Assembly (NCBI GenBank): GCA_963702845.1
Contig: OY969763.1
Location: forward strand, 3,072,001 to 3,136,000
Direction: 5' to 3'
Origin: an uncultured Verrucomicrobiae bacterium
GTDB taxonomy: Bacteria; Verrucomicrobiota; Verrucomicrobiia; Limisphaerales; Palsa-1400
DNA length: 64,000 bases
Part shown: piece after piece, positions 20,378 to 60,845 of the stretch
Numbering within the stretch: position 1 is the first letter of the stretch
Layout of the letters: each line of letters begins with the position of its first letter
Translations under genes and position numbers: made by a program
The notes under the pieces: model-generated
What the model was told of the DNA's origin: nothing
Databases searched by the model: none
Seen by the model: the letters and a program-made list of their open reading frames with translations, nothing else

Positions 20378-23300
20378 CTACTTAGGCAGCACCCGATAAA
20401 ATTTCTGCAGCTCCCCGGCAGATGCGTTGATCGTCACTGAAGTAACTGCGCCTGTTCCAACTACCTCGCTGACGGTTTTCCAGTCGTGGCTGCCCAGGTC
20501 GGTTTTCGACTGCAATTCGTAGAGCTTGCCGGATACGGACGTCCAACTAATCACCGCTTCCGAGGAACTGACACTGGTCACCGACATGATAACCGGACCG
20601 GAATCAATCACAGTAGTTCCGAGACTTAGTCCGTGCGGCCCAGCACCACCGCCCTGGGTATAGTTCAACACGATGCTCCCGCTGGAGAGCGATACGGAGA
20701 AACTGCCGGTGTTGAATGTCCCATTCACGATACTGACAAACTGGCTATTGCCGGGGTTCAGTCCGCCAGCGAGGCTGACAATCGTCCAGCTATGATTTGT
20801 CTGCCAGTACGAATCGCCAAAATCGGGATTGGTTGCCGTTCCCGCAAATTGTATCGAAACCTGTGAACTGCCATTCAAAACCAGGTTACCTCCTGTGATC
20901 TGGAGTTGATCGAAATTGGTTCCGGCAACACCACTGGTGTCGTCTGCGAGAGAGTAGAGGTTCCACACATCGGTTCCTCCGCTGCTCAGGTTCAATCCGT
21001 TCTGAAGCCTCAGCTTGCCGAGCGCACTGCCACCGGAAATGTTTCCGCCAGAGTTGACCACGACATTGCCACTAATCAATCCGGTTCCAGCAATCGTCCC
21101 GCTGGAATTGACCTGCACGGTACCCGTTCCTGTGCCGCTGGCGTTTGCATTGTTAATGAGAAGCGTCCCGGCATTAACGACCGTTCCACCGCTGTATGTG
21201 TTAGTTCCGCTCAAGGTCGCGATGTTCGTCGTGCTCTTGGTCAACGTGGCAGTGCCACCGAGAACAGCGGAGACATCACCACTGCGCCGCACATCATAAC
21301 TGCTGGCGGTCAATACGCCTGAACCGATTACTCGGGCATTGCTGCCGTTGAGGACCACTGTATTAACCGTTTCATTAAATCCATTTAGGTCCACCTTTGC
21401 ACTATTGCTGATCGTCAGCGTCGTGGTGTTCGGAATGACTCCATTAGTTCCTAATTTCAGGGTGCCGACGACGACAGTTGTTTCACCCAGATAGTTATTG
21501 TTCGTGTTGTTGAACACGAACGTGCCTGCTCCGCCGTGGATTTGCGATGGGAAGCTCGCGTATCCAGGGAAAGTAATTCCACCAGGCCCGGTGAGAGGCG
21601 CATCGAGCGTTAGAGTGACCGAACTGGAACGAACGCCCATTTTGTTGCCCGCTGTCGTGCCAAGTGTAACACCGCGCGTGCTGTCCAGATCTGGCGCGGT
21701 TCCGTCAAAGCCAATGCCGCCGCCGTCGATCTTAATGAAGTCTGCAACGAGAGTCGGTGGAGCGCTGCCAAAGCGTCCGACGGCTGCCACTGAAATAATG
21801 CCGCCGTTAATGCACCATTTGCTCACGCTATTGTTGGTGCTGGTCAGATGAATACGCCCCGCCCCGGTCTTGGTGAAGTTTGTGCCGGCAATGGGACAAT
21901 CGAATGTCAGCCGATTGGTGTCACCGACGTCTACGATTTTGTAGTCGGCTCCATTTCCGGTGCCCGCGAACGTGATCGTATTCGTTCCTTCAAGGTAATA
22001 GGCGGACGTGCCTGCGATGATCTGTTTAACAGTAATCGCCACACTGTTGGTAACGCTTCCGGCGACGCCATCGAAAATGGCGTTCTTGCCGTTCGAATTA
22101 TTCCAGGCCTGGTTGAAAGGTCCTGCGGAAGATTTGGCCCAGTTGTTACTGGTGATGTTCCATGTGCCTGAACCACCGAGCGCCGAAGCATCACCCGACC
22201 AGAACAGGTCGTTGGTGCTGGAACTGGTAAAGTTCAGAACCACGCTGCCACTACTGAGTGTGGTCGAGAAGTAACCTGCGGCATTTGTGGGATTGATGAT
22301 CGTGGCGAAGCTCGCGTTGTTTGTATTCTGCCCGGCGTTGAGCCTGACGATTGTCCATGAATGATTCGTCCGCCAGAACGGATCGAGGATGTCTGGCGAA
22401 GTTGCTGTGCCGGAGAAGCGGATGAGCAGTTTGGAACTGCCGCCCAATCGCAGGTAGCCGCCGGTGAGAACCAGTTGATCGAAGTCTACGCCAGCCACAC
22501 CGTTCGAATTATCCACATTCGCCGCAAGGTCCCAAATGTTTGTTCCAGCGTTTGTCAGCGTCAACCCATTCTGCAATGTTAGCGCTCCAAGAGTATCGCC
22601 AGCGGAAATGACGCCGCCGCCATTGACTATGACATTACCGCCAATGAATCCGGAGCCAGCGAGCATGCCATTGGTATTAACCGTCACAGTATTGGTTCCC
22701 GTGCCGCTGCTCGGACCGGGGTTGTTCACCACTAACGAGCCGCCATCCACAGTCGTCACACCACTGTAGGTGTTATTGGTTGCAAATACGGTCCGTCCTC
22801 CGGCACCGCCGCTCACAGATCGGCGGAAACTTCCGATGCCCGAGATCTGGCCCGAAAATATCTGGTCCGGCGCGTTCAATAAACTGTACCCCGTCAATTG
22901 TGTCGCCTTATCTCCAGCGTTTCCGATGACAATGGGCTGCGTAAAACTGAATCCGTTTGTCAGCAACAATTCAAAAGAACCAGCTCCAGTAGAGGTCGTG
23001 TTACGAAGCGTCAGTGTGCCAGCCGTCCCGCTCAACGTGCCGCCGTAAGGCAGTTGCGTCACATTTGCAGTGGCATCTCCGTTGTTGATGCTCGAATTGG
23101 CGGTAAGGAGCAACGGGTTGAGAATGGCATTGGCCAATACACGGTTTGTGCTGAGAACAATTGCGCCACCCGACAGATTCAATTTTCCAACGCCACTGCC
23201 AAAGCGGCCCACCGCATCAATGGTCAATGTGCCAGCACTGACAGTTGTATCGCCCGTGTAAGTATTGGCAGCGCCCAGCGAAACATTCCCGGTGGTTGTC

Positions 23301-26300
23301 TTGGTCAAGGTTCCGTTTCCGGCCAGAATGGCGCTGACGCTCGAGCCCGCCGTGTAGCCGCTGCCGCGCAAATCAAATATGTTTGCAATCAGGCTGCCGG
23401 TTCCAACCGTGTCGAAAATACGCGAGTTGGTGCCGGTGCTATCGAGTGTTACTGCCGCAACCGTCTGAGTTTTTCCGTTCAGATTCAGGCGGCCGTTGAG
23501 TGAAGTGCCGCCAAGGATAATCGTCGTTCCCAAGGGGAAGACCTGATTCGTTCCGGCGCGCACTTCGGTCGTTTTGATTCGCGTCGCGCCGCCCCAACTG
23601 TTGTTGGTGCTGCTCAACACGAATGTTGTGTCCGAGCCCGCCTCTCCTGCCGGCCATTCCGATGGATCGGGGAAGCTTAGATCGCCGGGGCCGGATATCG
23701 GACCATCAATCGTAATAACCACTGACGCATTGCTCGCGCCGATTTTGCCGCCGCCGGACCCCAGATAAATTCCGCGAGTTGCTCCTATAGAGAAACTGCT
23801 GGGAACTCCCAATGCAGTGAAGCTCAATCCCCCAGTGTCGAGAGTCAGGAAATTCGTCACCAGCGAAGCAGGATTACCGGTGCCGAAGATTCCGTTGGCC
23901 GGATTGGACGTCACATTACCGGTGCCAATCGTGCCGTTTTTGACTACCCACAGACCGACCGAGTTGGCGGTGTTGTTCAGATTCAAGCGTCCGCCGCCGG
24001 TCTTCGTCAACACGGAGCCCGCGACCGGGACCTTTATGGTAAGGTTATTGGTTGCATCTCCGTTATTGACTCCCGGCACATCAACACCCGCCCCATCCCC
24101 GGCGAAAGTGGCGGTACTACTGCCCTGAATTGTGTAGTTGGAACTTACGATTATAATTTGATTTACAGTAACGTTCGCACCGATAGTCACTGTGCCGCCA
24201 GTTCCACCAAACGTTGCCGTGTTGGTCAAAGAGTTGTTCCAGATGAGACTGAATGGCGGCGCGTTCGTTGCGCCCCAACGGGTGTTGGTTACATCCCAAG
24301 TTCCCGTGCCACCCAACGTGCTGCCGTTAGCCGACCACCAGAGCGAACTCGAGATCGAAGTCGTAAACCGCAGAATGATGTTTCCCGAGCCATCCACTTG
24401 GTTGGTAAATGTTCCGCAGCTATAGGTTCCGTTGACGATCGATGCGAATGCAGCATTGCCGAGGTTCGATGCGCCGGTCAGGCTGACGATTTTCCATGCG
24501 TGATTGGCGCGCCAGAACTGATCGAAATCGTTGGGCGTAGTGCTGCCGTTGAAGCTGAGCTGCAATTTGGAAGTGCCGCCCAATTGGAGTTGCCCGCCAG
24601 TCAACAGCAACTGATCGTAATCCGTTCCAGGAATGCCCCCGGATGCGTCGTCCTGCAAGTTGGCCAACTCCCAAGTGTTTGTTCCTGAACTCGACAGGTT
24701 CAAACCATTCTGCAGGGTCAAAATCCCGACTCCATTACCTGCCGAAATTGTGCCGCTGACCACCACGTTTCCTGCAATTTTGCCGGAGCCATACAACACG
24801 CCACCGGCGCTGACCGTTACAGTATTCGTTCCCGTGCCACTACCGGGACCCGGATTATTCACCACCAAGATGCCGCCATCCACAGTGGTCACACCGCTGT
24901 AGGTGTTATCGGCCGCAAATACGGTACGACCTCCGGAACTGCTGCTAACAGACCGGCGAAACGTTCCAACACCGGAAATTTGACCCGAAAAAATCTGATC
25001 CGCCGCACCCAATGGGCTGAACGAAGTTAACTGCGTGGGTTTATCTCCTGCGATTCCAATGATAATCGGCTGCGCGAAGTTAAAGCCGTTCGTCAGCAAG
25101 ACATCAAAAGAACCAGCTCCGGTAGAGGTCGTATTGCGAATTGTCAGCGTGCCAGACGTCCCGCTCAATGTGCCGCCGTAAGGCAATTGTGTCGGGTTGG
25201 CAGTGGTGTCTCCATTGTTGATGCTCGAATTGGCTGTAAGGAGCAGCGGGTTGAGCAGCGCATTGGCCGTGGGACGATTCGTGTTCAACACGATGCTGCC
25301 ACCCGCCAGATTCAAAGTCCCCGCACCACTTCCAAAACGGCCCACTGCATCAATGGTCAACGTACCAGCGCTGACAACCGTGGCGCCTGTGTAAGTGTTG
25401 GCAGCGCCCAGGTAAATGTTTCCGGCGGTGGTTTTTGTCAGAGTGCCCGTCCCTGCCAGCACAGCGCTGACACTGGGGCCGCTGGCATACGCGCTTCCTC
25501 GTAGATCAAACAAATCAGCCGACAAACTCCCCGTGCCATTGGTGTCGAAGATTCGGGAATTGCCGGCGCTGTCCAAAACCACCGTGGCTACCTTTTGGGT
25601 ATAACCATTTAAATTGAGGCGTCCATTAATGGAGAGATTGCTGATGATGAGCGATGTGCCAGTCGGGAAGACCTGATTGGTGCCCATGCGGATTTCAGCG
25701 GTCTTTATTCGCGTCACACCTGTCCAACAATTATTGGTGTTGCTAAGGATGAAAATGCAGTTGTCGCCGTGAATCTGGCCCGGAAATTCTGTAGTGCCCG
25801 GGAAACTCAGTTCGCCAGGGCCGCTGATGGGGCCGTCAATGGTGACGATGCCTCCGGTGCCATTATTGCCGATTCGACCGCCGTTCGTGCCCAGATAAAT
25901 ACCGCGGTTTGCACCAACGGTCATCGCAGCAGATGCGCCGAAGCCCAACGCTCCGCCATCAAGCGTGATGAAATCCGGATCGAGCGCGGCAGGCGCTGAC
26001 CCGAAGAGCACATTCGCATTATTGCCGGTGGTGGAAGTAATCATCCCATCTTTCACCACCCACTCGTTCACGGAATTGCCCGTGTTATTGCAGTTGAGCC
26101 GGCCGCCCCCGGTCTTCACGAGCAACGGCCCGGCCAGCGGGCAACTCACCGTCATAACATTTGTCGTACTGCTGCTCAGCGCACCCGGATTGCTGATGCC
26201 GGAATCAACGCCTGTAAACGTTATCGCGTTTGTGCCTTGCAAACCATACAAGGCAATTTGAAAGATCAGTTGGTTGACGGTGATTGGTTCGCCAATGGTA

Positions 26301-31010: not shown

Positions 31011-31102
<92 letters not shown>

Positions 31103-49384: not shown

Positions 49385-52300
49385 TTAATGCTTTAAACGG
49401 AAGAAACCAGGTGTCGCTCCGAATGGAACCGTCACGGTGTAGTTCGTCCCGGAAACACTAACACCACCCACTGCGTTCCATGACGCGGCGTTTACAGTGC
49501 CGGCGTTTTGCAGGACGTAAGCGCTGTTGTTATTGGTCGGCCAGGAAATCTGAATCGCGCTGGCCGAGCGCGCGGCTGTCAAACTCGGCGCAACTGTTGT
49601 CACATCAGAGAAGGACGTGCTGACCACGATGTTGTCGATTATCTGGGAACCAGCAGCTGTCGGAGCCGATGGAGTTCCCGACTCGCGGATACCAATCCCA
49701 GTTACGTCGAACGGCGTCAATGGGTCCGTAGCGGTAGCGCCCACGTCGTTAGGCGAGGTCGGATTCACCCAAATGGTCGAAGACCCGACGCTGACTTTAT
49801 ATCGAACAACGACGTTGTAGGTCGTATTCAGACTCAGGTCCAATGGGAATTGCACATTCGGCGGATTATTGGCGCGATTGGACAGACCAAGACGGAACTT
49901 GCCGCTTCCAGCACTGCCGATCGAAGCAAAGACTTTGGCAACAAAGTTTGTTCCCGCAGCGTCACGCAAGTGAATGAAGTAGTCACCATTTGCACCTGGC
50001 AATACTGTTTGTTTAAGCGTGAAGCCAATGTAGAGAACGTCTCCAGAAGTCGCGGTAAACGGCCCACTCGGAAACGTCGCGTAAAGATCTTCTGAGTTCG
50101 TCAAATACAGACTGACCTGGGCGGAAAAGTTGCTCACAATCAATTCGTAATTCGTGCCGCTGCTATGGAACCATGGGCTGTTATTTGCGAAGGACAACGA
50201 TGTGCCATCGGGATATTCATCGAAGTTTTCGCTGAACAAAATTCCGAGCTGAGGACCACTACCGACAAACAAATCGAAGCTGCTGGTCGCGGTCATGTTG
50301 TCAGTATCTGTCACAGTGACAGTCACCAGAGCCGTTCCAGTTTGGCCGGAAACGGGGTTCAACGTAATATTTCGCACGATTCCGCTTCCGCCCAATGTAA
50401 TTTGATTATTGGGAAGGAGTGTTGGGTTCGACGACGAAGCAGTAACAATTAGATTTGCCGGAGCCGTTTCAGCATCGCCGACGTTGAACGAAATCGGGCC
50501 GACGGGAACGCTTGAATCGATCGATTGATTTGCGATAGCGGATATCGTCGGCGGCGTTTGCGCGGAGCAAATGTTCTGCGGCGAAGCGCTGTTGTGCGGA
50601 TTCGGCGCTGCTGTAACGAAATCCAGGGCGTTGTTGTCGTTATCGATGCAGCCCCAAGTCCCGTTGGCGACATCGCTGGCACTTCCACGGAAATCCGCAG
50701 TGGTATTGGAAGGAGCTGGAGCCGGGCCAGTTCCTTCGGCTGGAGTTGAGCCGGAACCGAAAGCGACGAGGTCAACCACGCGCGCATCGGGCAAAACTAC
50801 CGTTCCAAGCGCATTCGTGGTATTTGCCAACGCAACTTTGCCGCCGGTTGCGCTAACCGCAATATTAGTATTGCCTGCGTCCGGCGTTGGAAGCGCGGCT
50901 GCTCCTGTATTAGCGCCCGGCGCGAGCTGAACGAGGAAGTAGCTGTACGGGGCGATGTTAACGGAGGGCAGATTGACACAGAAATTCGTGGTCGTTGTAA
51001 ACGCCGCAGCACTGCCTGCATACTGAAGTGACCATCCAGCAAGACTCACGTTGGTGCTTGTGCGGTTAAACAACTCGACGAAGTCGTTAGCGTATTGTCC
51101 GCCGGAATTGCCGCCACCGCCGTAGACCTGGCTGATCACGACAGCGGCGCGAACAGGTTGAACAACGTTCAACACCCCAGAGTCCGTCGCAGTCAACGCA
51201 CCCGAGCTAGCGCGAACCGTTGCAGTTCCGGTGCCGTTAGCGGTAAAAACTGCACTTTTTGAATCAACTGCTGGAACAAGGTCACCTGCAACAACTGAGC
51301 CGGTTATAGTAGGCAACGACCAAGCGGACGCTGCGACGTTATCAACAAAGTTGGCATACGCATCACGACGGATCGCATAAACCGTGATCGAGCGTCCGGC
51401 TATGAGAGTTTGCGCAGGAACGACTGTGCCGCCGCCGTTGGCTGCAGTTTCCACACGCACCTGCGCAGGACTTCCAGCAACAACAGTGATAATGCCGGAA
51501 TCGATATTAATCAAACTGCCGGAGACCGCGCGAACTGTTGCCGTTCCGGCAACATGCCCGGTGATTACAGCGCTTTTCTTGTCGCCTGATGGGACTAGGT
51601 CACCAGCAACAACACCACCAGTTGACCCACTTAATGTCCATGAGTCTGCGGCCACATTCGCGACGAAATTATTCGCGGCATCACGTTGGATTGCATAGAC
51701 GGTGATGGAATTTCCAGCAGTAAGATTTTGGGCCGCGACAACTGTTCCACTACCATTGGGCTGGGTTTCCACGCGAACCATAGGACTGCCACCACCTCCG
51801 CCAGTGCCCGTTACTACGATATTATCCAGTGAAATTTTTGGGCGAGAGCCAGTGGTTCCACCATCGCCGTTGTATTCGTAAAAGCGAATTCTCGCATTGG
51901 GATTACTGTTAAAGGCGGCTGGAAGCGTGATCGAGGAGCGGGTTCCCGAGGCAGGTACATTGTTATTGCACGATACTGAAGCAGCCGTCAGTTCTGTAAA
52001 GGTCGTCCCATCAGTGCTGGTATAAACCTTAAGTGTGGCCGCTCTGTCTCCAGTGACCGTTATTTACTTCGGCCCAATCAAAGCTCAAAGTTCCGGCAGT
52101 GATGCCGGTAAAATCGAGAAAGAGATCGCGCCAATTGCCGCTGAATGATCCGTGCTACCGGTGGTCAAGAACAGCATGGCTCCGGTTCCCTTCTGAATAC
52201 CAGTGCTTTGGCTGACGGCAGCGGGCCAGCCGGCAGTAGCAGTAGCATTGGTCGTGATTTTCACGCCATCGGGAACTGTTCCGGATGTGTTGATAGGCGC

Positions 52301-52507
52301 GGCGGACCAGCGGCTCGCACCAATTCCGCTGGAAAAGTTAGCGCCCCAGTTAGCAATGTCATCGAAACCTTCGGAGTAATTGCCGGACGACATCGGGTAA
52401 GGCGTTGCAGCGACTGCACTCCAAGAGCACATTAGTGCGACCGCGAACAATGCGGCCCGAACTATTAGGGAAACTTTAGATACTGATCCTACAGGGGTTG
52501 CTTTCAT
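49385..52507 (-). CDS. Large secreted lamin-tail-domain (LTD)/Ig-like repeat protein; frameshifts at ~52128 and ~52056
   Basis: Signal peptide at 52507; reading continues DLFLDFTG...GDRAATLKVYTS into ORF 49385-51781; LTD motif VVISQVYGGGGN..NDFVELFN; two ~100-aa VRVET repeats. Confidence 0.8.
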
Positions 52508-52683: not shown

Positions 52684-53283
52684 TTTACCGTTTCTTGACC
52701 GTTTCTTTACCGAATTTGACCGGCCACATAAAATTACGGATTTCGGATTGCGAATTGCGGAATGGTTCAAGACAAACCTTCTGCGATGGGCGCAATGCAC
52801 GCGACATCAGGTAGAAATGGTGCAGTTTTGCGTACGGTTGACGATGGGTGGCGCATTAGGATTACCTCAGATGACCAGACGTGACCAAAGATGACCAAAC
52901 GTGACTGAACGTTGCCGCTGGTGGATTTTGTACTGCCTCGATTTGGGAAATGATGCAGAAATGATGCAGAAATAGTGCAGTTTTCTTCGGTCGCGGATTT
53001 CGAACCACCGAACGACCGTCGGGGCTCGCTTTGCTCGTTGGCGGATTTGCGGCATAGTGAGATTACCTCCGATTACTTCTGATTACCTCCCGTTGCCTTT
53101 TTCATTTTTTTCCAGACGTGGACCCGAAAACTGAACTTTTCTGTACATTTACCTGTACGTTTTTTCGTTTTGACCGTGTTCATTTTACGAAAGGCGGCAA
53201 AAGTTTACCTTTTCTTTACCGAAGTTTTACCTCTGCCGGAATCGCGACTGGTAAAGTTTACCGTTTCTTTACCGAATTTGACC
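52684..53283. repeat. Cluster of different 10-11-bp-period tandem repeats plus one heptamer repeat
   Basis: Blocks at 52684-52721, 52734-52761 (heptamer), 52871-52910, 52947-52979, 53061-53090, 53204-53232 and 53257-53283; the 24-mer ACCGTTTCTTTACCGAATTTGACC occurs at 52698 and 53260. Confidence 0.8.
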
Positions 53284-53481
53284 ACTTGCGGAGTTTTAGC
53301 CACTGACCGCAACGTCCGGCGCGCGAACACGGATTGAACACAGATTCTTCCTGTGAATTTGGAACTCAGGCCAGTTTCCTGATCTTTCATAAGACGGACA
53401 CCTTTCCAGCCGGGACAAACGCCGGCACGTTAAGTCAGCGAACGACAACAGTTCACTGACGGATTCTTAGGATTCAGATAT

Positions 53482-53616
53482 GAGTTATATAGCGGCGCGT
53501 TTTCACGCATCGCATAAACCCTCTCTCACCGAGAAAGGCCCGAATGGCGGGGGCGCTGCATTCCACCGGAATGAGTTGGCCGGTCGCACGAACCCTGCAC
53601 CGCAGGGTTGATTGAC
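53482..53616 (-). ncRNA. Structured RNA with three C-GGU-G hairpins and a GAAA hairpin, copy 1 (core resembles the Acido-Lenti-1 motif)
   Basis: AACCCUGC-GGU-GCAGGGUU, CAUUCC-GGU-GGAAUG, CCUUUCUC-GGU-GAGAGAGG, GCGU-GAAA-ACGC; G-U pairs form only on the minus strand. Confidence 0.7.
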
Positions 53617-53968
53617 AGAGGCATTTTTGGGTTTTCAAAAGAAATTTGCAAGAGATAAAACTGCGGTTGGAATTGGAAGTTGCTCCGGGCTTGGTACCGG
53701 GTCGGAGTATGATCAAGCCAAAACCGGCGATCATGGTGGCGGTTATGGGAGAGTGAAATTCTCTGTCGGCGAAGCTGGCGCCAGCTAAAGGTCAGATATC
53801 ACTGATATGACAATACCATTAACTTTTTCGCCAGAATTGCACGCGACCTCAGCCACAATTGATCGGACCAAATCTCCTGAAGGCAGATACCCGTCCGACC
53901 ATTATGCAGGCACAGCAATACTGCGGTGGTAATCGGGCACGAGCCAATTCCGATCAATTCAATCTCTA

Positions 53969-55678
53969 TTACTGATGCACGCTGATGCTGTAAAAACCGG
54001 CGGTGATGTGGCTCAGGATATTTGTCCAGGAATTCTCCGGGGGCGTGGCAATGAGGTTGGCTGCGCCGGGTAGCGCTGCGAAAGCAGCTGCGCCCGAGGT
54101 TAGGTTCGTCGCACAAAGGACGTCATAAAGTCGGTTGGACACACTCGACCAGTGCAGAACGAATTGCGTGCCCGAAATGACCTGCTTGCTCGTAATTTTA
54201 AAAACTGAATTGGCGTTGGTCGGATTAGTTCCCGCAACATACTCCTGCCGGTTGTTCATCCCATCGCCGTCCGAATCCAGATTGTCGGCGCTGCCATCGG
54301 TCGGCAGGCCGTAAGACGCCAACCAAGTGTGAAACGCCTCGGTTTGCGTCTGAAACGTGAAGCGCGCAACCGTCGAGGTGGCAGACAACCCGTATCCCCA
54401 AATCGCACCCGTGTAATTTTCCGTCGAGGTCGTGCCAATGCCCGATTGGACCCGCACGTCCACCGTTCCCGAGCCTGCAGGCGCAACCGCGGTCACATGG
54501 CCATCGTCGCTAGCGCTCGCCGGCACCTGATTGGTTCCGAACCAGACGGTTAAGCGGCCTGCCGCTCCCGAGAAATTCTGGCCGGTGATTGAGACCGATG
54601 TTCCTGCCACACCTTGCATCGGGCTCACGGACGTCACGGCGGGGCTGAGATCCACCATCTCAAAATTTGTAAACCAAAGGCTTTTTAGCCCATGGACGGT
54701 ATCCTGGATGTCGTTATCGTTCCAGGTAAGGGCGAATCCGTTGGTCGCATTGACCGAATAACTGGCGCCGTTGATGTAGAAAGCCGACCCATTATCGGCA
54801 ACGATTAGTCCGTAATCTTTTAAAGCCTGGGCAACGATCCGGGCTTGCGGATTGAGTGAGGAGATGTCCACGTTGGCTTTCAAGCGGAACCGTGCGCCCA
54901 TCGGCGGTTGAATGGCGCAGTTAGTGCCAGAGTTCGCGACGTGTGAGCCTGGATAAACAAATTGATCCAGGATGATTGAGTTTGGGAGCGTGAACCGAAG
55001 CGCATGATAAATGCCGCCCTGCCCTCCCTGCGCCACTGGCAACGCCTCGTCGGGCCGCGCCAGTCCGGCAAGGATCGAAAGTCCAGCCGCATCCGCTGAG
55101 GTCAATTCCAACGGACGGAAGTAATTGTTTGTCATGTTCCAAAACGTCTCACTATCCGCATGCCACTTGCCATCCGCGTTTTCCGACGGGCGCGACGCGC
55201 GATAAAATTCGTAGGCCACATTGTTGTCTTCGTCCCAGAGCAGCAGATGTGAATCGCCCCGAGTGTCGACGCCGACCGTCGGCGCAGTCTGCATATCGCC
55301 TTCAATTACGGCGTTGGCAGGAATGGGGGCATCGAGCAAATCGCTGTCGCCGGCGTACGCATCGATTACAACGTGAACCTTCGGGGTAGCGTTGCCGTGA
55401 ACGACGTTGTAAGGAATGCCATACAAATCAGTGTTGGCGAGCCTTTGGTCCTGCCCGAAATCGGGGTGGAGATGACCGTTTCCGTATCTGTTAACGATGT
55501 TGCTTATGATTACGTCCGAATTGGTCGCGGCAGGCGCCTGGGAAAGCTTTTGGTTCCACGGATAATCGGCGGGAAAAAGATTCGACCCCAGCAGCGCACC
55601 ACAAGCCGGTATGATCGGCGCGGCCAGCACGCAGACACAGAGAAAACTAAGAAGAAGGACTCGGCTTGGCCGGTGCAT
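53969..55678 (-). CDS. Secreted protein: uncharacterised N-terminal domain + IPT/TIG domain + TSP3-like DxDGDG motif + C-terminal F[YF]x domain
   Basis: Signal peptide; PAVTSVSPMQGVAGTSVSITGQNF (IPT); DSDGDGMNNRQEYVAGTNP. Confidence 0.8.
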   Translation of the reverse strand: MHRPSRVLLLSFLCVCVLAAPIIPACGALLGSNLFPADYPWNQKLSQAPAATNSDVIISNIVNRYGNGHLHPDFGQDQRLANTDLYGIPYNVVHGNATPKVHVVIDAYAGDSDLLDAPIPANAVIEGDMQTAPTVGVDTRGDSHLLLWDEDNNVAYEFYRASRPSENADGKWHADSETFWNMTNNYFRPLELTSADAAGLSILAGLARPDEALPVAQGGQGGIYHALRFTLPNSIILDQFVYPGSHVANSGTNCAIQPPMGARFRLKANVDISSLNPQARIVAQALKDYGLIVADNGSAFYINGASYSVNATNGFALTWNDNDIQDTVHGLKSLWFTNFEMVDLSPAVTSVSPMQGVAGTSVSITGQNFSGAAGRLTVWFGTNQVPASASDDGHVTAVAPAGSGTVDVRVQSGIGTTSTENYTGAIWGYGLSATSTVARFTFQTQTEAFHTWLASYGLPTDGSADNLDSDGDGMNNRQEYVAGTNPTNANSVFKITSKQVISGTQFVLHWSSVSNRLYDVLCATNLTSGAAAFAALPGAANLIATPPENSWTNILSHITAGFYSISVHQ

Positions 55679-56011
55679 CTCGTGAGTATAACCAAAAAAC
55701 GATGGAGCAAAAGCACCCACCCTGCCGAAGCCAGCACCCTTAATGCCATTATCACTGCAATTCTTCTTTAGCATTCCCGCCTAGAACCTTAACTGAAAGG
55801 AAATTGCTTTTGACGCTGGCGCGGTTAATTCGCTCGGTAAGCGAATCAGCCCAGTGCACTCACCACCGTTACGCGACTTTGTATGCATTGTATCGCGCGA
55901 AATGGAAGGCGTCGGGCGTCGGATCAAGTAATGGGGTGGAAATGTCATCCAGAGACTCAAACGAAAGGAGGATTCCAAGTTCGCGGCAGTATTCTTAGGA
56001 TTTTTTGAGTT

Positions 56012-56192
56012 TCAGAGCGTATAAAAAAATGCTGTGTCCATTCGGCTGAGCAGAGGGGAGAGCGGTCTTTTTGAATTTTGACTTCGTTTCGACTCAGTCA
56101 CAGACCGCTGCGGGTATGCTCCTTCGTTAAAGCCTCGCCAAAATCCAAAAATCCTCGCTCCGAACGGCTACAGAATTTTTTTATACGCTCTA
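56012..56192. mobile_element. MITE (~181 bp, non-coding)
   Basis: 22-bp terminal inverted repeats AGAGCGTATAAAAAAAT(G/T)CTGT (21/22); flanking GAGTT direct repeat; internal IR TTTTTGAATTTTG/CAAAATCCAAAAA; absent from the equivalent site of RNA copy 1. Confidence 0.8.
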
Positions 56193-56328
56193 GAGTTATA
56201 TAGCGGCGCGTTTTCACGCATCGCTTAAACCCTCTCTCACCGAGAAAGGCCCGAATGGCGGGGGCGCTGCATTCCACCGGAATGAGTTGGCCGGTTCGAT
56301 CGAACCCTGCACCGCAGAGCTGATTGAC
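56193..56328 (-). ncRNA. Structured C-GGU-G RNA, copy 2
   Basis: Near-identical to copy 1; first hairpin varies to AGCUCUGC-GGU-GCAGGGUU, with substitutions that keep pairing via G-U. Confidence 0.7.
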
Positions 56329-56796
56329 AGGAGAAAAATATAATATGGGTAAGAAAATGCAAGACTGTGCCGCGCGAATTCCCAGAAATAGTGGAGGGGT
56401 AGTGGGCGAGTAGTGAGTGAAAGGAACAGGAGCAAACGGAGGGAACGGAGGTGCTGGCGTGCAGCCAGGGTGGCATGAGATGCATTACTGGAACGACCGG
56501 GGCTGAATGAAGATGCGAAAAACCCGCGGCGCGGGCAGAAAGTGCAGCGAACCATTCGCCGGCCAAGGGAGTCCTATGTCAAAAACCGGGTTATTTTGCC
56601 CGAACAACAACCGGCGTCGCTGGGTAGGCTGGACTGAGGAGTGGTTTCACTCAGTCTGGATGAACACTAAGGAACCAAAGCATCTGCTGGTTGATATCAT
56701 TAACACTGGTGAGCGCGCACCTCATCCGCCACTCAGCCTCGTTAACCCAGCACCGGTAGTCGCGCTTTCGAACCGTGCCGAACACCCTGTGCCGGT

Positions 56797-57084
56797 TCAG
56801 CCTGCGCTCAAATCTTCCATCGCACCATAGAACGATATCTCCGGTTTGCCGACGACACCAGCCCCCGCCATCGCCTTCCGCAGCTCTGCGGATTTGATGA
56901 ATTTTTTCAATCGCGCGGTGGTATCCCACTCGCACCAGACCAGTAGGTCGTTTGGACTCTTGCTGCCGCGGCAAACATAAAAACTTTTCTCCCCGGACGC
57001 CTTGCGAACGGCAGCGAAGGTTTTGACCTCCCGTTTCCACTTCGCGTAATTGGCGACCTTGTGCTGAATCATGACGTATGGCAT
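56797..57084 (-). CDS. Small ABM/cyclase-like dimeric alpha+beta barrel protein
   Basis: HKVANYAKWK, R..SG, PNDLLV..EW, SAELRKAMAGAGVVGKP; GAAAGG RBS. Confidence 0.75.
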   Translation of the reverse strand: MPYVMIQHKVANYAKWKREVKTFAAVRKASGEKSFYVCRGSKSPNDLLVWCEWDTTARLKKFIKSAELRKAMAGAGVVGKPEISFYGAMEDLSAG

Positions 57085-57598
57085 GTCGTACCTTTCGGTT
57101 AATGTGTTGTGCTACCAAGTGCGGCTAAACGGCAAACGCGCCGTCCCCCCGGGTGAACATGTGCGAGCTCCTTCCGTCTGTCCAATCAAACTTGGTCTGG
57201 ACTCGCTCGAGAGCTTCAGCTTACTAGCATGAATCCTGCACGGCCAAAATATTCAGCCTAAGGAACCATCGAACTTGAAATCCCCAATGGGGCCGCTGTT
57301 TCAATTCCGGACTGGCGGCTCAGAACTGCAATGATTTATTTCCAATGGTTAGAGGACCAGTTCGCTCCAGGCTGTATCAAACCCTCTACCGCGCAAGAGG
57401 ACAAAAAGCAAAATCCTGCTATGAGGGACGGCAACTTGTTTCTTTGATGTTGTTTAGTTTTCTTGCGACATGAGTTAGAGGGTGAAGTTCAATTTGGCAG
57501 ATGGAATGGAACGGAGGAGGCCGGGCAACCGTGGGTCCCGGTTCCGAATCGGGATCATCATCAAGTCACCGTGCGAGGGCGCGTGATGCTGGCTTGTT

Positions 57599-57692
57599 GC
57601 TTAAACCCTCTCTCACCGAGAAAGGCCCGAATGGCGGGGGCGCTGCATTCCACCGGAATGAGTTGGGCGGTCAACCCAAACCGAGCCGATCC
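57599..57692 (-). ncRNA. Structured C-GGU-G RNA, copy 3 (conserved core, divergent flanks)
   Basis: 57599-57666 is identical to the copy 2 core; the 5' hairpin is replaced by GGaUCGGCUC-GGUUU-GGGUUGACC. Confidence 0.65.
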
Positions 57693-57756
57693 GAAGGACT
57701 TGTTACTTTCGCTTTAGCTCGTTTGCATGCTGAACAGTAGAAAAAAGTTCGTGTTC

Positions 57757-60700
57757 TCATTTGTTTTCAGTCCCACGCGTTGAATCACTACTCCGTTCGA
57801 AAATCAGGTAGAGGACCGGCAGCACAATGAGCGTGAGGAGCGTGGCTGAAACCAAGCCGCCTATAATGACAACGGCTAACGGCCGTTGTGTTTCGGAGCC
57901 AATCCCGTGCGAGAGCGCCATCGGCAACAGCCCAAGCATCGCCAATAATGCCGTCATCAGCACCGTTCGCAGCCGTGTCGCGGCGCCTTCCATGATTGCC
58001 TCATAGAGGGAGACACCTTCATCCCGAAGCTGGTTGAAATAACTGACCATGACCACGCCGTTGAGGACGGCCTGGCCGAAAAGCGCAATAAAACCGATCG
58101 CCGCCGAAACGCTTAACGGGATGCCGGTGAGCAGCAAGGCAAGTACTCCACCGATCAAACCAAGCGGCACGTTTACCAAAATCAGCAGCGCACTTTTGAC
58201 GGATTTGAACGCATCAAATAGCAGCACAAAAATCAGGAACGTGCTAATCGGAACAATGAGAGCGAGGCGTTTCATCGCCCGTTGCTGGTTTTCAAATTCC
58301 CCACTCCAACTCACAAACCAGCCCCGCGGAAGCGACGTTTTTTGCAAACGAGCCTGCATATCGGCCACGACGCTGCCCATGTCGCGTCCTTTGATGAAGA
58401 TGCTGATAGCCGAGAGCCGCGTCCCGTTTTCGCGGCTGATGTTCATGCTGCCGCCGGTTTCCTTGAACACAGCCACTTGTTCGAGCGGGATGTGGAGACC
58501 ATCTGGCGTGTCCACGAGGATTTTTTTCAAGTTGGCCAGGCTGCGCTCAGCCTCGGGCAGTCGCACAACGATACTGAAGTGCTGTTCCCCTTCCCACAAC
58601 TCAGTGGCGGCTTTTCCGGCAAGGCCGATTTCGATCACGTCCTCGATATCGCCGACATTGAGCCCATACCGAGAAGCACTCTCACGATCAATTTCAATGA
58701 GCGCCTGGGGCACTTCCCCGGCGCGATCGACAACCGCCGTTTCAACGCCAGGAATATCGGCAATAGCCTTCACCATCTCTTGCGCTTTACGGCGCAAGGC
58801 AGCGGAATCATCGCCGAACACTTTGATCACGACCTGCCCGTCAATCTGCGAAATGCTCTCCAGCACATTGTCGCGGATAGGTTGTGAAAAACTGATTTCA
58901 ACTCCCGGCAAACTTTCAAGATTCCGCCCCATCTCCTGGATGACCGCTTCCTTGCTGAGCCCGCGTTTCCATTCGCCGGGCGGCTTTAAATCCACAAAAG
59001 TCTCCGCCATATTAATCGACTTCGGATCAGTCCCGTCTTCCGGCCGTCCTGCTTTGGAAATGACCGTGCCGACTTCGGGCGTCTTGCGAATGAGCTCGCG
59101 CATCTTCGGCAATACACCCGCGCCTGCTCGACCGAAATACCCGGGGGCAGATTGGCGTTAACCCAAATCTTTCCTTCGTTCAGCTCGGGCAAAAATTCCG
59201 TGCCGAGCCTGGTAGCCATCACCAGGCTGGCGACAAACACCCCCAACGCGGCAATGAGGACAAACTTTGGATGGGCCATCGCACGCCGGAGGACAGCCAA
59301 ATACGGCTTCTTAATGGACCGCACGAGCGCGTTTTCCGTGTGCGGAATATTTTTCCGCAGCAAAAACATGCAGAGCAAGGGCACCAACGTGAGCGAAAAC
59401 AGCAGCGACCCGGCCAACGCACTGGTCACAGTCCATGCCATGGGGGCAAAAATCCGGCCTTCATGACGTTGCAATGTGAAAATCGGGATATGCGCGGCGA
59501 TAATGATGAGCATGGAAAAGAACGTTGGCCGGCCAACCTCAATCGTCGCCTGTTCAATCGCCTCGCGGAAAGTTCTTTTGTCACCGCTTTGCTTCAATTC
59601 ACCAAGACGCCGGAAGACATTCTCAACAACGATCACTGCACCATCCACAATAATGCCAAAGTCCATCGCTCCCAGAGAAAGCAAATTAGCCGGTATCCCT
59701 CGCCAACTCAGCCCAATGAAAGTGGCCAACAAAGACAGCGGGATCATAAGTGCAACGATGGCGGCAGCGCGGAAGTTGCCCAGAAACAGCAGCAAAACGA
59801 ATGTCACGAGAATCGCGCCCTCCGCCAGATTCTTGAAAACGGTATGAAGCGTTGTGTCAATCAACCACGTGCGGTCGTAATAAGGAACAATTGTGACACC
59901 TTTCGGGAGGATAGACGTATTGAGCAGCTCAATCTTCGCCTTCAGCGCCTAAGCACATCCGAAGGATTTTCGCCTTTGCGCATGAGGACGATTCCCGAGA
60001 CAATATCATCTGTGTCGTCCTGCCCGATAATCCCTTCCATCGGCAAATGGCCCAATCGTAATGTCCGCAATGTCCCTTGATCAAAATCGGTGTCGCCGCC
60101 CCGGCTGGTGATGACGATGTTGCTTATATCATCAGGAGAGCGAAGAAGACCGACACCACGAATGATATACTGCTGTGAACCCTGCGTCACTTTGCTTCCG
60201 CCCACATTGGCATTGCCGCGGCCCAACGCGGTAATAGGGTTGCTGCAGCGTAATACCATAGTACGCGCATCCGACCGAGGCTGGGGTTGACTTCATACGT
60301 TTTACCAAGCCCGCCAAGAGTCACGACATCGGCAACACCTGGCACGCCGCGCAGGTTTCGCTCCACAACCCAATCTTCAAGCGTGCGCAAATCCCGCGTT
60401 GTATAACCTCGGGGCCATTCAGGGTGTAGCGGTAGATTTCGCCGATCGCGGTAGAGAGCGGCGCCAGTTGCGGTTGGACGCCTTGAGGCAAATCAGCTGT
60501 CGTAAGCCGTTCGAGCACTTGCTGGCGCGCCTGCCTATCAGTCGTTCGGTCATCAAAAGTCAGCATGATGAACGAGAGACCAAACTGCGTGTGTGAAAAC
60601 ATCCGCACCATGTGCGGCAGACCATTCAATACTGTTTCAAGCGGCATCGTGACCTGCTTCTCCACTTCTTCCGGAGCGCGGCCCGTATAAAGCGTGATGA

Positions 60701-60845
60701 CGTTGACCTGAATATCCGATACGTCAGGAAACGCCTCGATCGGCAAGCTGTGAAATGCCGCGAGACCACCACCGATAAAAAGAACCGCCATCAGCACGAT
60801 GAACAGCGGCTGATGCAGGGCAAAACTGACGACGCGTTTAATCAT
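57757..60845 (-). CDS. CusA/CzcA family RND efflux transporter with five or more frameshifts (assembly artefact or pseudogene)
   Basis: LPIEAFPDV, APEEVEKQVT, ANLLSLGAMDFGIIVDGAV, EGRIFAPMA, GTEFLPELNEG, GFIALFGQAVLNG, RLRTVLMT, GSETQRPLA spread over several frames. Confidence 0.85.

Follow-up and report, generated by a model that had tools for sequence, protein, structure and literature searches.

A 64,000-nucleotide stretch of genome from an uncultured Verrucomicrobiae bacterium (order Limisphaerales, Palsa-1400; contig OY969763.1 of assembly GCA_963702845.1, forward-strand positions 3,072,001 to 3,136,000), here termed the window, carries on its minus strand two copies and one fragment of a family of tightly packed hairpins that we call the hairpin array. 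Sequence comparison across homologues supports, through covariation, the array as a real conserved RNA motif, which is best read as the predicted 5' leader of small, dispersed mini-cassettes derived from helix-turn-helix (HTH) and terminase genes. The window copies are partial derivatives of such cassettes that have lost the HTH gene, and their present role is probably that of portable promoter-leader units and of homology anchors between accessory genes. In what follows, G000 is the host genome from which the window was taken, G001 and G002 are congeneric genomes, and G076, G125, and G166 are other sampled genomes.

Structure and covariation

The conserved element comprises four hairpins (P1 to P4) of about 100 nt in total, spaced by 0 to 1 nt, and the case for its structure rests on covariation among homologues rather than on the folding of single copies. 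In alignment A5, which has 23 rows and leaves out two duplicates (L073 and L097), locus L067 with its degenerate P1, and most G000 copies, 93.1% of 837 cells were paired, and two-sided changes were found at 18 of 37 pairs, including 11 of the 15 pairs of P1. This level of covariation was reached in none of 500 shuffles, a test that ignores the relatedness of the sequences, and slid controls were 41 to 53% paired. RNAalifold recovered the same four helices from the alignment unaided. Folded singly, the three window copies gave z scores of -1.25, -1.62, and +0.18 on the minus strand, which are not significant against shuffles and no better than those of the plus strand. A first-pass annotation of this DNA had proposed that differences among the window copies preserve pairing; these differences are one-sided G-U changes, and the two-sided changes come from the homologues. 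The comparison of pairing among copies within G000 and within G125 involves too few independent events to carry weight.

G-U or U-G combinations fill 104 alignment cells and A-C or C-A combinations 13, an excess that supports the minus strand. The loops are GGU in 55 of 69 cases, with G in the middle in 68 and A in the third position in 6; because the pattern used to search metagenomes fixed parts of the P2 and P4 loops in ten rows, the fair count is that of P1, where the loop is GGU in 18 of 23 rows. Outside the window's lineage, 13 of 18 rows have an internal loop in P2, GAA/AGUA, which may be a bulged-G/loop-E motif; within that lineage it is altered. Across the genome, C-GGT-G hairpins are slightly enriched (5.95 per 1000 sites versus 3.3 to 4.9 for other loops). 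The first-pass description is supported to this extent: the element is structured, conserved, multicopy, and specific to one strand, and its C-GGU-G loops recur.

Copies 1 and 2 each consist of five adjacent hairpins, three of them capped by C-GGU-G. Copy 1 occupies positions 53616 to 53482 of the minus strand, where all of P1 to P5 are present in the sequence. Its P1 (53583 to 53616, minus strand) begins at the predicted transcription start, a G at 53616, and has a C-GGU-G loop. On the same strand, P2 (53552 to 53581) has this loop together with the internal loop, P3 (53539 to 53551) has a variable pyrimidine-rich loop, and P4 (53520 to 53538) again has C-GGU-G. P5 (53482 to 53519, minus strand) differs between homologues. 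Copy 2 (P1 to P5, 56193 to 56328, minus strand) scored 78.4 bits with covariance model R2. The earlier count of three copies holds for these two, each with three C-GGU-G stems; copy 3 (57599 to 57672, minus strand) is by homology a fragment that retains only P2 to P4, with two GGU stems and without promoter or P5.

Promoter and extent of the leader

When 32 copies were scored with our own promoter consensus, the score peaked exactly at the first paired base (mean of 14.3 versus 9.9 ± 0.35 in 2000 shuffles and 6.9 to 10.9 at shifted anchors). TTG occurs at -35 in 27 of these copies and A..T at -10 in 27, the spacers are unrelated, and the predicted promoter ends 6 to 7 nt before the first paired base, so that transcription is predicted to begin at the array itself. 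The predicted sigma-70-type promoter of copy 1 (53623 to 53651, minus strand) has a -35 element TTGCAA, 17 nt, a -10 element AAAAAT, and 6 nt to +1. Upstream of copy 2 (56335 to 56405, minus strand), CCACTAC repeats 11 bp apart accompany a predicted promoter with -35 TTGCAT, 16 nt, and -10 TATTTT; by eye, metagenome homologues have similar upstream repeats.

In intact loci the HTH gene starts at +187 to +301 from the predicted +1. A start of the HTH gene was called in 15 loci, and 14 of these lack a run of six or more U ahead of it; no terminator-like sites were found at the ends of the window copies. The lack of a terminator, together with the HTH start downstream, argues for a leader and not a separate RNA gene. 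Outside G000 and G002 there are 21 full-length loci whose downstream DNA can be read; in these the array is followed by an HTH open reading frame (ORF) in nine, an HTH stub in four, and phased DNA repeat modules only in four; two have an ORF resembling the small terminase subunit (TerS) and are duplicates of each other, and two have nothing recognizable. RNA libraries were also consulted. Two runs, from two studies, each yielded one contig that lies inside the leader of relatives (equivalent to window positions 53500 to 53589 at a depth of 3.7 and 53455 to 53600 at a depth of 3). The share of words in these runs is small and only part of the leader is covered, so that lack of cover elsewhere proves nothing.

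The HTH cassette

The fullest layout in G000 runs from the promoter through P1 to P5, an A/C-rich linker, hairpins P6 and P7, a ribosome-binding site, a gene for a 136-amino-acid HTH protein, and phased 11-bp DNA repeats to a 275-amino-acid ORF. Much of this can be traced behind copy 1 on the minus strand: the linker with P6 and P7 (53391 to 53481), a segment common to HTH-bearing copies, in which P6 spans 53460 to 53434 and P7 spans 53426 to 53409; a ribosome-binding-site-like GAAAGG at 53406; a stub of the HTH gene (53373 to 53390) that keeps the first six codons (MKDQET), the remainder being deleted; and phased repeat modules at 52684 to 53273, among them GGTAAA-type units 11 bp apart, with 5 matches against 0.03 expected. 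Modules of this type lie 3' of the HTH gene where cassettes are intact. The downstream part of copy 2 is cut off by the insertion, directly after P5, of a 178-bp element resembling a miniature inverted-repeat transposable element (MITE), with 32-bp terminal inverted repeats (56014 to 56191, strand not assigned). A second G000 copy of this element (3255255 to 3255431) again lies directly after P5, and the element is also found in locus L089. Relatives of it turn up in one RNA-library run (X2).

G000 has seven intact HTH genes, three with the hairpin array as leader and four with another leader. The HTH protein has 528 homologues at an E value of 0.001 or less; among 150 other sampled genomes of the order, 18 carry it. 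Its predicted fold has three short helices, one long helix, and one more. Family profiles identified HTH_23 in 57 of 70 members and Terminase_5 in 3; hits against PHROG were weak, look-alikes of the protein include Terminase_5 and Phage_terminase clusters, and the best result of a structure search (Z of 7.0 over 52 residues, root-mean-square deviation of 2.5) gave no clear fold match. The second ORF and the TerS of a resident prophage match in their C-terminal halves (hhalign probability of 96.7%, E value of 4.5e-10); the ORF had no hit in Pfam, PHROG, or Atlas, and the match between the HTH and TerS profiles is confined to the HTH turn (45%). At locus L093 the RNA lies before a TerS-like ORF. 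In the flanks scanned, no large terminase subunit gene (TerL) was seen beside RNA-bearing cassettes and no integrase or dedicated transposase was found; the flanks are ordinary or accessory chromosomal genes, with IS3 copies beside one locus.

G000 has further TerS-like genes at C1:5405056, 6004712, 2924358, and 2816199. After two of them comes a large-terminase-like start, and the other two have 10-bp tandem or phased repeats in that place; they are part of a wider set of terminase-derived mini-cassettes. On the minus strand of G000:C1:665750-666050, a promoter-like site and a boxA-like sequence, GTTCTTTGACA, precede 10-bp tandem repeats, and this is a second type of leader before repeat arrays. 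No boxA-like site was found within 1.5 kb in any of seven RNA cassettes, unlike the separate repeat-array family, which has one in the same position.

Distribution

The genome-wide count that the first-pass annotation had called for gave 17 pieces of the family in the 6.03-Mb G000, of which 7 have P1 to P5 complete and 10 are cut at scattered 5' or 3' points. Thirteen lie at 3.12 to 3.26 Mb, between accessory genes that include many long surface-protein genes. In the 3.16- to 3.27-Mb region the pieces point leftward up to 3.155 Mb, with one exception, and rightward from 3.21 Mb, and the GC skew is flat; the switch of orientation is possibly an inversion inside the accessory region.

Relatives of the host are labeled both Verrucomicrobiales and Limisphaerales. 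Homologues occur in one congeneric genome, and BLAST searches of 30 other genomes of the family located the motif in one. Full matches to covariance model R1 occurred at 4 of 28 HTH loci and, among 149 other genomes of the order, in 6; model R2 had matches in 6 of 150 genomes of the order and in none of 149 from the rest of the phylum. These searches scored 22 to 27 candidates per genome under strict filters, so that weak copies may be missed. A pattern search of metagenomes returned 12 loci, 11 of which were confirmed, and a search of genome contigs with one single protein returned only two near-relative loci. The covariation spans at least seven families of the order as well as metagenomes. 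Seven pieces were counted in G125, and a single copy was counted in five of the six other RNA-bearing genomes of the order. Neither the RNA nor the HTH was found in viral, phage, and plasmid collections, including IMG/VR contigs and INPHARED phages. No Rfam 15 family covers the motif, and literature searches, whose scope excluded most subscription papers, the supplements of Weinberg-type motif surveys and a 2026 language-model preprint, returned no description of it. The hairpin array has so far been found only in one order of Verrucomicrobia.

Portability and evolution

The RNA is portable between HTH types and persists after loss of the HTH. Only 12 of 36 HTH rows carry it, and its presence changes 6 to 7 times on the HTH tree; a single clade of RNA-bearing HTH genes was rejected (approximately unbiased test, P = 0.001), even without the swapped copy. 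The label is nonetheless clustered, with only 3 to 4 of 500 shuffles as low. These are quick trees, and six rows were left out of the approximately unbiased test. One orthologous site has, in G000, the RNA in front of a C-type HTH, a type of 33% identity; in G002 the HTH is the same but its leader is another, and in G001 the cassette is missing. At the phoR site the cassette is present in G002 and the site is empty in G000. In G166 (96% complete) the RNA is present and no HTH match was found.

The first 58 nt of the array group by genome: G000 copies are 86 to 98% alike and the two G002 copies 95%, compared with 78 to 90% across genomes. The 70 nt upstream group instead by subfamily across genomes, with matched pairs at 89% and 73 to 76% versus 40 to 61% between subfamilies. 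This pattern points to concerted evolution within genomes that begins near +1, which is explained by gene conversion limited to the conserved part. Retro-mobility or cDNA-driven homogenization was rejected, since the upstream promoter is retained in the copies and the search for RVT_1 in G000 found none. G076 has 24 reverse-transcriptase matches, 17 of them with identical scores, a recent expansion of one such element.

Function of the leader

We tentatively favor, at somewhat less than even probability, a portable cis-acting leader that recruits a host protein for read-through or stability. The transcript would start at the promoter's +1, the first base of the array; the three C-GGU-G loops would recruit a host protein; and that protein would keep transcription going, or the transcript alive, through long untranslated repeats into the downstream genes. 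That the repeated C-GGU-G element binds a protein is probable. A host partner, rather than one encoded by the cassette, is suggested because the leader precedes very different HTHs, outlives HTH loss, and sits far from the ribosome-binding site, and read-through is the suggested output, with stabilization as the other, because long untranslated repeats and co-oriented long genes lie downstream. The next ORF outside the cassette is co-oriented in 11 of 13 full-length loci against a base rate of 54% (P of about 0.02, a post hoc value from loci that are not independent), and it is often a very long surface-protein or polysaccharide gene. The boxA-like site of the separate repeat-array family, for which the RNA cassettes have no counterpart, was also counted for read-through.

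Several points weigh against this interpretation. We infer all three of its parts, the partner, the read-through, and the effect on stability. Three identical loops would fit a multivalent binder better than RNA polymerase, and intact HTH genes are present in trans in both multicopy genomes, which leaves room for binding by the HTH. Four of six promoter-bearing truncated pieces face convergent genes, which read-through does not explain. A stock promoter scanner did not call the predicted promoters, the copy in G166 is 550 nt away from the end of its contig, and the RNA-library contigs, which are short, of low depth, and without a DNA control, hint only weakly at transcription of the leader. 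A bolder form of the hypothesis, which we consider rather improbable, would make the array a new type of portable antiterminator RNA or of protein-docking platform. The GGU triloops of the nascent leader, three in number and equivalent, would load a multivalent factor, and the unit would hop between terminase-derived mini-cassettes and be homogenized within each genome from +1 onward. In Limisphaerales it would be put to new use as a module of promoter plus read-through by which very long accessory genes are both captured and expressed.

Autoregulation of the Aca type is possible, though on balance unlikely; the HTH of the cassette would bind both the phased DNA repeats and the GGU-capped hairpins, thereby buffering its own level, and the HTH-less copies would serve as decoys for HTH protein produced at other loci. 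The layout is that of the Aca1, Aca2, Aca10, and Aca12 operons (PMC13551039), with a DNA motif at the promoter and an RNA motif right after the start site. Of 21 distant loci, 13 have an HTH ORF or an HTH stub behind the RNA; the RNA label clusters on the HTH tree, and the protein is a predicted HTH with long helices. However, the RNA-bearing HTHs do not form one clade, which argues against an obligate pair, and the RNA is absent from 24 of 36 HTH rows. The same loops stand before HTHs that are only 33 to 46% identical, the conserved part stops 90 to 200 nt before the start codon with variable sequence between, and the HTH was not found in G166.

Less probable is a small RNA acting in trans, in which a processed RNA of 100 to 140 nt would titrate a host RNA-binding protein, such as one with an RNA recognition motif (RRM). 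Its three near-identical loops, the multiple pieces in G000 and G125, and the retention of promoter and structure by HTH-less copies suit such a role, as do the four to five RRM genes in all five RNA-bearing genomes tested and the position of both RNA-library contigs inside the leader. In Bacteroides, an RRM protein binds a multicopy family of small RNAs (PMC11697453), although the FopS RNAs combine a single-stranded seed with a terminator and differ from a hairpin array. The first-pass annotation had likened the array to a stand-alone sponge such as CsrB. Repeated loops on a multicopy RNA were indeed found, but this idea is weakened, as no terminator was found after the hairpins, the transcript in intact loci is predicted to run into an HTH gene, 10 of the 17 G000 pieces are cut at scattered points, and five of six other genomes of the order have a single copy. 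Nor did the parallel extend to a CsrA partner: CsrA (PF02599) was detected in two of five RNA-bearing genomes and was not found in G000 (89.8% complete), G076, or G125, the first and last of which are the multicopy genomes.

We regard as very doubtful the proposal that the cassette is an orphan terminase-small-subunit or pac-like module that borrows the capsids of resident prophages, with the hairpins, as RNA or single-stranded DNA, serving as a scaffold for packaging or mobility. The resemblance of the second ORF to the C-terminal half of the prophage TerS, the TerS-like ORF behind the L093 RNA, the terminase clusters among the HTH look-alikes, the differing presence of the cassette at two sites in congeneric genomes, and the lack of an integrase or dedicated transposase in the scanned flanks all agree with this proposal. 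Against it, neither RNA nor HTH was found in the IMG/VR or INPHARED sequences, resident prophage TerS genes have no RNA copy beside them, the HTH matches the TerS profile in its turn only, and most HTH cassettes lack the RNA.

It is also very unlikely that the hairpins are a DNA repeat of the repetitive extragenic palindromic (REP) type or a neutral relic, functioning as single-stranded DNA or not at all, with the copies as recombination-homogenized debris. G-T bias occurs in DNA hairpins too, and the many truncated copies, the MITE insertions, and the concerted evolution within genomes are in keeping with debris; for individual window copies, copy 3 especially, decay is plausible. The promoter held at a fixed distance from the first pair in 32 copies, covariation over at least seven families and metagenomes, the conserved internal-loop motif, and the single-copy, HTH-linked state in distant genomes speak against this reading.

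Four further identities were set aside: a mini group II intron (GUGCG after P1, D5-like P5), by eye, as both features vary among copies; a hairpin ribozyme (GUC start), as the GUC pairs with covarying partners; an attC or dif-linked array, as no such motif was seen and the cluster lies at neither the origin (about 4.75 Mb) nor the terminus (about 2.2 Mb); and a specific nick site, as the break points of truncated pieces are scattered.

Comparison with known systems

In layout, the closest resemblance is to the 5' untranslated regions of Aca1, Aca2, Aca10, and Aca12 in acr-aca operons (PMC13551039): in both, a covarying hairpin motif lies right after the predicted start of a small-HTH transcript, with DNA repeats around the promoter. 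The Aca motifs have one or two hairpins, whereas the hairpin array has four to five, with three identical triloops, at a long distance from the ribosome-binding site; the distribution of Aca1 motifs follows the protein tree, whereas that of the array over the HTH tree is patchy. Neither acr genes nor a phage context were seen here, the flanks being chromosomal and phage records lacking the element, and no anti-defense operon on a phage or mobile element was found. That the RNA motif directly follows the predicted start site of an HTH-encoding transcript places it with the Aca leaders in this respect.

The array also recalls the antiterminator RNAs HK022 putL and the conAn type (PMC9378689 and PMC8191782), which are promoter-proximal, packed stem-loops with internal loops that act in cis before long transcription units. 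Adjacent promoter-proximal stem-loops are present here as well. The put RNAs of lambdoid phages (PMC9378689) have two stems and a triplex and no repeated loops; the likeness is one of layout only, we claim no match of sequence or fold, and antitermination by the array is a proposal. Promoter-stem-loop (PeSL) cassettes of T4-type phages likewise place a repeated sigma-70 promoter and a stem-loop between accessory genes of a variable region that shows signs of recombination, the stems being single, terminator-like, and located around the promoter (PMC2839356). The hairpin array differs in lying on a bacterial chromosome, in having its hairpins 3' of +1 in a conserved multihelix fold without a U-tract, and in deriving from an HTH cassette.

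GGA motifs in larger loops characterize CsrB and RsmZ, whereas the loops of the array are GGU in 55 of 69 cases. With these RNAs and with the FopS family bound by RbpB (PMC11697453) the array shares multiple copies and repeated motifs, and RRM proteins occur in its hosts; it differs in its GGU triloops and in lacking a terminator, a link to CsrA, and a single-stranded seed.

The central part of the array had been likened in the first-pass annotation to the Acido-Lenti-1 motif (RF01687). This identification failed: no Rfam match was found at an E value of 10 or less over window positions 53300 to 57800, nor over the motif in 12 homologous loci, and the gathering threshold of 37 bits was not reached in the window. 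At least five true RF01687 matches above the cutoff lie elsewhere in G000 (150 of 1108 candidates scored), and their sequence, of 46 nt with two hairpins, is unrelated. What the two share is the genome and the form of a multicopy intergenic hairpin element (PMC2864571). The true matches at C1:844991-847758 and elsewhere form inverted pairs, some just after what looks by eye like the 3' end of a gene for a Y1 tyrosine transposase, an arrangement that suggests that Acido-Lenti-1 may be a REP-like DNA repeat rather than a small RNA.

Other features of the window

Between copies 2 and 1 lies a gene for a 601-amino-acid protein with IPT/TIG and TSP3 repeats (53969 to 55774, minus strand), which is accessory, co-oriented with copy 2, and outside the cassette. 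A 95-amino-acid ORF between copies 3 and 2 (56797 to 57084, minus strand), also accessory, has a weak ABM-like match below the cutoff. To either side, at 49385 to 52507 and 57757 to 60845, a lamin-tail-domain surface-protein gene and an AcrB-type efflux gene appear split over several frames, perhaps through decay or through indels in the assembly. Direct repeats, diverged and about 2.13 kb apart (22408 to 25915), and one tRNA gene (31011 to 31096) are unrelated to the hairpin array.

Significance

The hairpin array is narrow in range, being known from one order, its function is a prediction, and its window copies are partial derivatives. It is at the same time a well-supported structured RNA motif without a match in Rfam 15, from a phylum with few characterized RNA regulators, and its candidate partners can be named: the HTH of the cassette, RRM proteins, and RNA polymerase. 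Should the leader promote read-through, it would join the few RNA-based antiterminators that are known; should the HTH protein be what binds it, RNA binding by HTH proteins would extend beyond anti-CRISPR operons. In the host, the hairpin array marks a region of the chromosome in which genes are shuffled.

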